DNA of 565 nucleotides from a phage. A program made the position numbers and the translations under genes. The notes beneath the pieces are model-generated. The model was not told the origin of the DNA and ran no database searches. It worked only from the letters and a program-made list of their open reading frames with translations. This document shows positions 1 through 441 of the stretch, piece after piece (within the stretch, counting starts at the first letter, position 1; the number at the start of each line of letters is the position of its first letter). The stretch is taken from sequence record EF517093.1; one strand, written 5' to 3'.

Positions 1-441
1 GTTCCGGCTGCTGACCGTGTGTTCTACTGTGACCCAGATAGCTACTCTGCGATTCTGGCAGCACTGATGCCGAACGCAGCAAACTACGCTGCTCTGATTG
101 ACCCTGAGAAGGGTTCTATCCGCAACGTTATGGGCTTTGAGGTTGTAGAAGTTCCGCACCTCACCGCTGGTGGTGCTGGTACCGCTCGTGAGGGCACTAC
201 TGGTCAGAAGCACGTCTTCCCTGCCAATAAAGGTGAGGATAATGTCAAGGTTGCTAAGGACAACATTATCGGCCTGTTCATGCACCGCTCTGCGGTAGGT
301 ACTGTTAAGCTGCGTGACTTGGCTCTGGAGCGCGCTCGCCGTGCTAACTTCCAAGCGGACCAGATTATCGCTAAGTACGCAATGGGCCACGGTGGTCTTC
401 GCCCAGAAGCTGCTGGTGCAGTGGTTTTCAAAGTGGAGTAA
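1..441 (+). CDS. 10A: Major capsid protein 10A, C-terminal 147 codons (5'-partial; start codon lies upstream of the window)
   Basis: Frame +1 is open from base 1 (GTT CCG GCT GCT GAC CGT = VPAADR) and continues through the listed 19..441 ORF to TAA at 439-441. The ORF track's start at GTG 19 is an artefact of the window edge. The translation (…FYCDPDSYSAILAALMPNAANYAALIDPEKGSIRNVMGFEVVEVPHLTAGGAGTAREGTTGQKHVFPANKG…AKYAMGHGGLRPEAAGAVVFKVE*) matches the C-terminus of T7 gp10A as I recall it. Codon choice (CGT, CTG, GGT, AAG, GCT) fits a highly expressed gene. Confidence 0.93.
   Translation, partial: VPAADRVFYCDPDSYSAILAALMPNAANYAALIDPEKGSIRNVMGFEVVEVPHLTAGGAGTAREGTTGQKHVFPANKGEDNVKVAKDNIIGLFMHRSAVGTVKLRDLALERARRANFQADQIIAKYAMGHGGLRPEAAGAVVFKVE

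Follow-up and report, generated by a model that had tools for sequence, protein, structure and literature searches.

The 565-nt stretch of phage DNA analysed here (hereafter, the window) almost certainly contains the programmed -1 ribosomal frameshift site of the T7 capsid gene 10, as found in a T7 variant. The putative slippery heptamer G GUU UUC (Val341-Phe342) lies at positions 423–429 of the forward strand, 9 nt before the TAA stop codon of gene 10A (439–441). Confidence in the site comes from homology and comparative data, and not from the statistics of the window. The feature itself is already known: the 10A/10B frameshift was described by Dunn and Studier (1983), Condron, Atkins and Gesteland (1991) and Sipley et al. 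(1991), according to the citations in PMC1635266, and both PMC1635266 and PMC5009743 give GGTTTTC (G_GUU_UUC) as the sequence at which T7 shifts. T7 capsid display vectors are built on this classic example of recoding, and recognizing it matters mainly for correct annotation. Mildly new are the comparison of the slip site and the downstream structure across relatives, and the mutation pattern of the variant.

The slip site at the 3' end of gene 10A

The window was aligned with the T7 reference genome (V01146), where it matched positions 23564–24128 without gaps and with 98.6% identity. It was 97.7–98.8% identical to ~100 further T7 records. In V01146, gene 10A is annotated at 22967–24004 and gene 10B, joined from two pieces, at 22967–24162, followed by the Tphi terminator at 24210 and the start of gene 11 at 24228. 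The 3' edge of the window is equivalent to T7 24128. The gene, the position and sequence of the heptamer, and its 9-nt distance to TAA are the same in T7 and in the window. The two differ by eight point substitutions, and the window stops ~11 codons short of the end of 10B, before the Tphi region. The initial annotation had taken the region to be homologous to T7 gene 10, with a -1 shift of the 10A/10B type that was already described and not novel. The gap-free alignment supports this homology, and the GenBank T7 record, with its 10A and joined 10B coding sequences, bears out both the frameshift reading and its lack of novelty. The coordinates proposed for the heptamer (GGTTTTC, 423–429) and for the 10A stop (439–441) proved exact.

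Positions 1–441 of the forward strand encode the 3' part of the major capsid gene 10A, namely residues 200–345 and the TAA. This assignment follows from the frame-1 translation and its identity to T7. The frame-1 protein matched the Pfam family PF21703 (Gp10A-like) with an E value of 5.6e-53 and residues 200–343 of the solved T7 capsid chain (PDB 2xvr_A) with an E value of 2e-90. In the 10A frame, the heptamer is divided as G|GTT|TTC, with Val at 424–426 and Phe at 427–429, and Phe342 is followed by AAA GTG GAG before the TAA. GGTTTTC occurs as a single copy on both strands of the window, with 0.03 copies expected per window (200 shuffles).

Searches of the window for other elements gave little. 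No frameshift-element family was found in Rfam at E values up to 10, where the only match was a chance miRNA-like one (E 0.9). Scans of both strands revealed no sigma-70 promoter and no intrinsic terminator, and the repeat search found no inverted repeats, just two short imperfect two-copy matches. The minus-strand open reading frames (37–75 aa) are antisense to gene 10 and were rejected, as nothing supported them.

The four-T run at 425–428 could in principle be a site of transcriptional slippage, producing mRNAs that are one U shorter and need no ribosomal shift. Appreciable polymerase slippage is known for homopolymer runs of ~8 or more, and a run of four bases is far below this length. In addition, the literature treats the T7 case as ribosomal (PMC5009743, PMC1635266), and how efficient the shift is depends on sequence far 3' in the mRNA (PMC5009743). 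We therefore regard the probability of transcriptional slippage as practically negligible.

The site was compared with 9 annotated GenBank phage relatives and 80 IMG/VR loci, 78 of which were distinct. These 78 loci are mutually related, so that the counts given for them do not represent independent events. NGTTTTC was present at the homologous position in 72 of the 78 distinct loci. The heptamer was GGTTTTC in 67 of them, AGTTTTC in 4, CGTTTTC in 1 and GGTTTTA in 1, and CGTTTTC was also found in the phages Ebrios and KFSA9. The Val codon of the site was GTT in 75 of the 78 loci, compared to 43% GTT for the remaining Val codons in the 143-codon stretch that contains it. The two codons preceding this Val codon varied freely, both synonymously and non-synonymously. 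The GTT bias, combined with this free variation immediately upstream, points to selection on the U-run itself in these relatives. The distance from the heptamer to the stop codon was 6–18 nt.

Several relatives deviated at the site. One locus (L027, 1038–1044) has GGTTTTA, with Leu in place of Phe, yet it retains a -1 tail of 45 codons. Another (L044, 1000–1065) is the sole relative with GTA TTT at the site, and its -1 extension is just 4 codons long. The 10A of this locus is 7 codons longer than that of T7, and the distance from site to stop is 30 nt rather than 9 nt. Judged from its sequence, L044 appears to have lost the recoding arrangement naturally.

Four T3-like loci (L028, L031, L033 and L036, ~1029–1035) lack the U-run at the T7 position. 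Two codons 3' of it they have C|CCA|AAG instead, and their -1 tails are 84–93 codons long; the position of the slip site has shifted by no more than a few codons. Condron and colleagues are said to have located the gene 10 frameshift of T3-type phages at C CCA AAG in 1991. The T3-type site resembles that of the window in gene, -1 direction and purpose, and CCCAAAG is in the appropriate register in all four loci. It differs in its more 3' position, in the use of tRNA-Pro and tRNA-Lys, and in its 84–93-codon tails. The window contains no such site.

The -1 frame and the 10B tail

The 10B-specific -1 reading extends from 429 to 565 on the forward strand (Gln343–Lys387) and runs off the window. 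The -1 frame (frame 3) is stop-free over positions 375–565, that is, for 63 codons, whereas its upstream part contains 15 stops in 124 codons. The initial annotation had described this frame as open from the U-run at 425–428 to the window edge; the second half of this description holds, but the opening begins at 375, 17 codons earlier. A slip at Phe342 would give the product ...AVVF-QSGVMLGMASTVAASPEEASVTSTEETLTPAQKATRIRAANKARK, the tail of which is identical to T7 10B at 41 of 45 residues. Both the T7 10B-like character of the tail and the junction peptide AVVF-QSGVMLG had thus been correctly recognized. The predicted slip product spans the junction ...AVVFQSGVMLGM..., and the predicted junction of 10A with the -1 tail reads ...AAGAVVFQSGVMLGMASTVAASPEEASVTSTEETLTPAQK. 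The window holds 45 residues of the 10B tail, and ~11 further codons lie beyond the equivalent of its edge in T7. The tail matched PHROG 12582 with an E value of 2e-20.

Taken alone, the open -1 frame is weak evidence. When positions 442–565 were shuffled by mononucleotide, 19.5% of the shuffles kept the frame open, although 45 open codons have a P of ~0.003 given the upstream stop density in this frame. It is the comparison with relatives that is informative. In the 10B-only region of the T7 clade, substitutions were distributed 10/6/23 over the first, second and third codon positions of the -1 frame, so that 23 of the 39 variable columns were third positions. For this region, 9 T7-clade relatives gave a pN/pS of 0.24 when read in the -1 frame, compared to 1.27 and 1.35 in the remaining frames; the pN/pS of the 10A body was 0.18. 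Frame-specific pN/pS and the excess of third-position changes argue for translation of the 10B tail in the -1 frame and for purifying selection on it. An extension of 38–100 codons was present in the -1 frame of 76 of the 78 distinct loci, while the +1 frame remained open for at most 17 codons in all of them.

These data also bear on whether the open frame could be due to chance in a G+C-rich 3' region, with no extension made by this variant. The shuffles that stay open would allow this, as would the non-synonymous nature of 4 of the 6 changes in the tail and the reported non-essentiality of 10B (PMC5592923). We nevertheless consider chance highly improbable, given the homology to the experimentally characterised T7 site, the frame-specific purifying selection among relatives, and the fact that none of the eight substitutions creates a -1 stop or hits the heptamer.

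Two other routes past the 10A stop were rejected. Readthrough of the TAA would lead the zero frame to another stop at 511, and the pN/pS in this frame is 1.27. A +1 shift would end at a stop at 470, and in relatives the +1 frame is limited to the ≤17 codons given above.

The 10B tails of the IMG/VR loci (L011–L090) fall into two length classes, 38–55 and 84–100 codons, with unrelated sequence directly past the site. In one locus (L087, 1032–1111), a TAG replaces the GAG present in the near-twin L045 and leaves a tail of just 16 codons.

The tail could also be translated separately from the ATG at 441–443, which overlaps the 10A stop as TAATG, yielding a free peptide of ~52 aa that is not fused to 10A. 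This ATG is in the -1 frame, and a separate coding sequence starting from it is annotated in AV103, Yanou, UFV01, HZ2R8, Ebrios and KFSA9; PHROG 12582 is itself a 52-position family built from such separate calls. However, TAATG is present in only 18 of the 78 distinct relatives, whereas the -1 frame is continuous with the heptamer in all 76 relatives with an extension of at least 38 codons. CHRF_10025 and FE44 keep the tail and have no start codon at this place. The GGAG located 2 nt before the ATG is closer than the usual Shine-Dalgarno spacing. Furthermore, a joined 10B coding sequence is annotated in the T7 and phiA1122 records, and a larger capsid species, of ~41 kDa and ~10% of the total, is reported in T7 virions (PMC1635266, PMC8923235). 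Separate translation is thus very improbable, and we retain the reading in which the tail is fused to 10A by the -1 shift. Protein 10B is reported to make up ~5–10% of the capsid, with an unstructured, surface-exposed tail (PMC8923235).

Many deposited T7-like genomes, along with PHROG 12582, present the 10B tail as a small gene of its own. In seven of the annotated relatives (L002, L003 and L005–L009), it is given as a separate ORF of ~52 aa that starts at the 10A stop, and not as a joined coding sequence. The names assigned to this ORF are 'head protein', 'hypothetical protein' and 'capsid and scaffold protein'.

Slippage mechanism and related sites

Most ribosomes would read GUU-UUC-AAA-GUG-GAG-UAA and release 10A (345 codons), and a minority would move one base back on G_GUU_UUC. 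During this slip, tRNA-Phe would re-pair fully from UUC to UUU, and tRNA-Val would keep two of its three pairs in moving from GUU to GGU. Reading would then resume at CAA-AGU-GGA (Gln-Ser-Gly), pass the 10A stop and add the ~53-residue 10B tail. The A-site half of the heptamer conforms to Y_YYZ, as both UUC and UUU are read by tRNA-Phe. The P-site half, G_GU, does not consist of three identical X bases, and tRNA-Val on GGU is mismatched at the middle position. We infer that the slip is tandem rather than by tRNA-Phe alone.

Slippage of tRNA-Phe alone on U_UUC, either from the A site or, when the A site is empty, from the P site, would be of the hexamer type and would give the same product; because of this identity, the two slips are inseparable by sequence. 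We consider the hexamer-type slip possible, but less probable than the tandem one. Position 1 of the heptamer is variable among relatives (G in 67, A in 4, C in 1 and also in Ebrios and KFSA9), and GTTTTC is kept. With A or C at this position, tRNA-Val would keep only one of three pairs according to the anticodon rules, so that the variability leans slightly toward a dominant role of tRNA-Phe. On the other hand, G prevails at position 1, although this may reflect the preferred codons CTG and GTG. The review by Atkins et al. (2016) can be read both ways: it places T7 gene 10 under X_XXY_YYZ, with G_GU as X_XX, and terms such sites 'intermediates with the hexanucleotide situation' (PMC5009743). 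The initial annotation had called the heptamer non-canonical, with a slippage mechanism that differs from that of retroviral or dnaX-type sites. The imperfect P-site re-pairing agrees with the first part of this statement; the second part is too strong, since the review files the T7 site within X_XXY_YYZ (PMC5009743), and the difference is one of degree.

Wild-type T7 gene 10 shifts at ~10% (PMC1635266). The same source reports <1% shifting for GGTTTTC transplanted without its native context, and the heptamer alone is therefore no guarantee of the wild-type level. For full shifting, T7 depends on sequence further 3', including CCCC in the Tphi terminator, >200 nt downstream (PMC5009743), and in 2016 the review still listed this long-range requirement as unexplained. 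The distal Tphi stimulator region is outside the window, the edge of which corresponds to T7 24128 (Tphi, 24210).

The A_AAA_AAG site of Escherichia coli dnaX is likewise a -1 shift of bacterial ribosomes that gives two products from one gene. It differs from the T7-type site in its perfect X_XXY_YYZ heptamer, its upstream Shine-Dalgarno-like stimulator, a stem-loop ~6 nt downstream, and an efficiency of ~50%. Involvement of the downstream stem-loop in dnaX frameshifting is documented in PMC1635266. By comparison, the T7-type site has an efficiency of ~10% and a characterised stimulator >200 nt away (PMC5009743). An upstream stimulator of the dnaX type is absent from the 20 nt before the heptamer (403–422, CCAGAAGCTGCTGGTGCAGT), which contain no AGGA, GGAG or GAGG. 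The G_GUU_UUU site of the cardiovirus EMCV and other G_GU sites share with the T7 site the imperfect 5' half and a U-run for A-site tRNA-Phe (PMC5009743). The cardiovirus site, however, is used by eukaryotic ribosomes with protein 2A as trans-activator, and has no homology to the site in the window.

Predicted downstream RNA structure and the substitutions of the variant

A branched RNA structure was predicted at 435–496 of the forward strand, 5 nt past the heptamer, from 9 T7-clade sequences using RNAalifold; it may act as a local stimulator. Its outer helix pairs 435–442, including the TAA, with 489–496, and encloses an inner hairpin at 443–473. The folding energy of the inner hairpin was -17.6 kcal/mol in T7 (z -3.56) and -11.1 kcal/mol in the window (z -1.38). 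For the whole predicted element, the z value was -1.10 in the window, -1.47 in T7, -4.06 in phiA1122 and -2.97 in HZ2R8. Among 21 T7-clade sequences, 95.7% of cells were paired, and no two-sided change was found at any pair. Because the variation throughout this clade is one-sided, it provides no covariation proof of the structure.

The 136 nt at 430–565 of the window folded no better than shuffled sequences (z -0.64). The T7 sequence from the heptamer through Tphi had a z value of -2.62, with the terminator hairpin as the dominant element, and its minimum-energy fold showed no long-range pairing of the terminator with the slip-site region. Across 77 distinct loci from several clades, the 62 nt beginning 5 nt past the site (a four-base gap) had a mean z of -2.8, compared to +0.28 for control windows of the same genes.

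A different hairpin was observed in the long-tail clade, which has 10B tails of 91–93 codons. In L041 (1049–1091) and 26 related loci (alignment A3, columns 27–69), it comprises 18 bp and begins 19 nt past GGTTTTC. In this hairpin, 98.8% of cells were paired, and two pairs (AU/GC and CG/UA) showed compensatory changes, in 15 cells. This cell count, the covariation score and the percentage of paired cells were not reached by any of 500 shuffles, and the signal collapsed in slid controls; most shuffles equalled the number of compensatory pairs. With its spacing of 19 nt, the hairpin is too far from the site for a classical -1 stimulator.

The predicted local structure at 435–496 may have a role in the shift. 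A stronger version is that the local 3' RNA structure is a real, under-appreciated stimulator across T7-like phages, with the structure kept while the sequence differs from clade to clade, in which case G450A would lower the production of 10B here. The mean z of -2.8, the covarying hairpin of the sister clade and the <1% shifting of the transplanted heptamer (PMC1635266) support this version. It is weakened by the 19-nt distance of the sister hairpin, by the missing compensation in the T7 clade and by the distal location of the published stimulator (PMC5009743), and we consider it tentative and rather doubtful.

The G>A substitution at position 450 of the forward strand (Val350Met in 10B), identified by alignment with T7 and by folding, breaks a G-C pair of the predicted hairpin (alignment columns 28–44). 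This pair is G-C in 20 of the 21 T7-clade sequences, with the window as the sole exception. By weakening the predicted hairpin, G450A could make the frameshift efficiency of the variant differ from that of T7. As a natural experiment, it offers, together with the comparative hairpin data, a small testable handle on the far-downstream requirement of T7 (PMC5009743).

All eight differences from the T7 reference are, on the coding strand, either G>A (239, 265, 450, 485, 525 and 531) or C>T (536 and 538). They change 10A at two residues (G279D and V288I) and the 10B-only part at four (V350M, E375K, A377T and T379I), and two further changes in the 10B-only part are synonymous. The 124 nt that code for 10B alone hold six of the eight (Fisher p = 0.002). 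To judge from the sequence, the changes look like the outcome of G:C-to-A:T mutagenesis, with constraint relaxed on the dispensable tail. An exact search with a variant-specific 29-mer (519–547) gave no match in IMG/VR or in the JGI metagenomes. A search of a plasmid collection yielded just a distant Yersinia prophage-like record. The records AY264775–AY264778 (T7 isolates K, K115 and P) had 9–13 mismatches to the window.

Seven of the eight differences are absent from all other T7 records compared, and G525A alone is shared. At this position (T7 24088), it is the T7 reference, with Glu375 (GAG), that is the odd one out: AAG (Lys) is present in the window, in several T7 records (LC730325, AY264777) and in all relatives examined.
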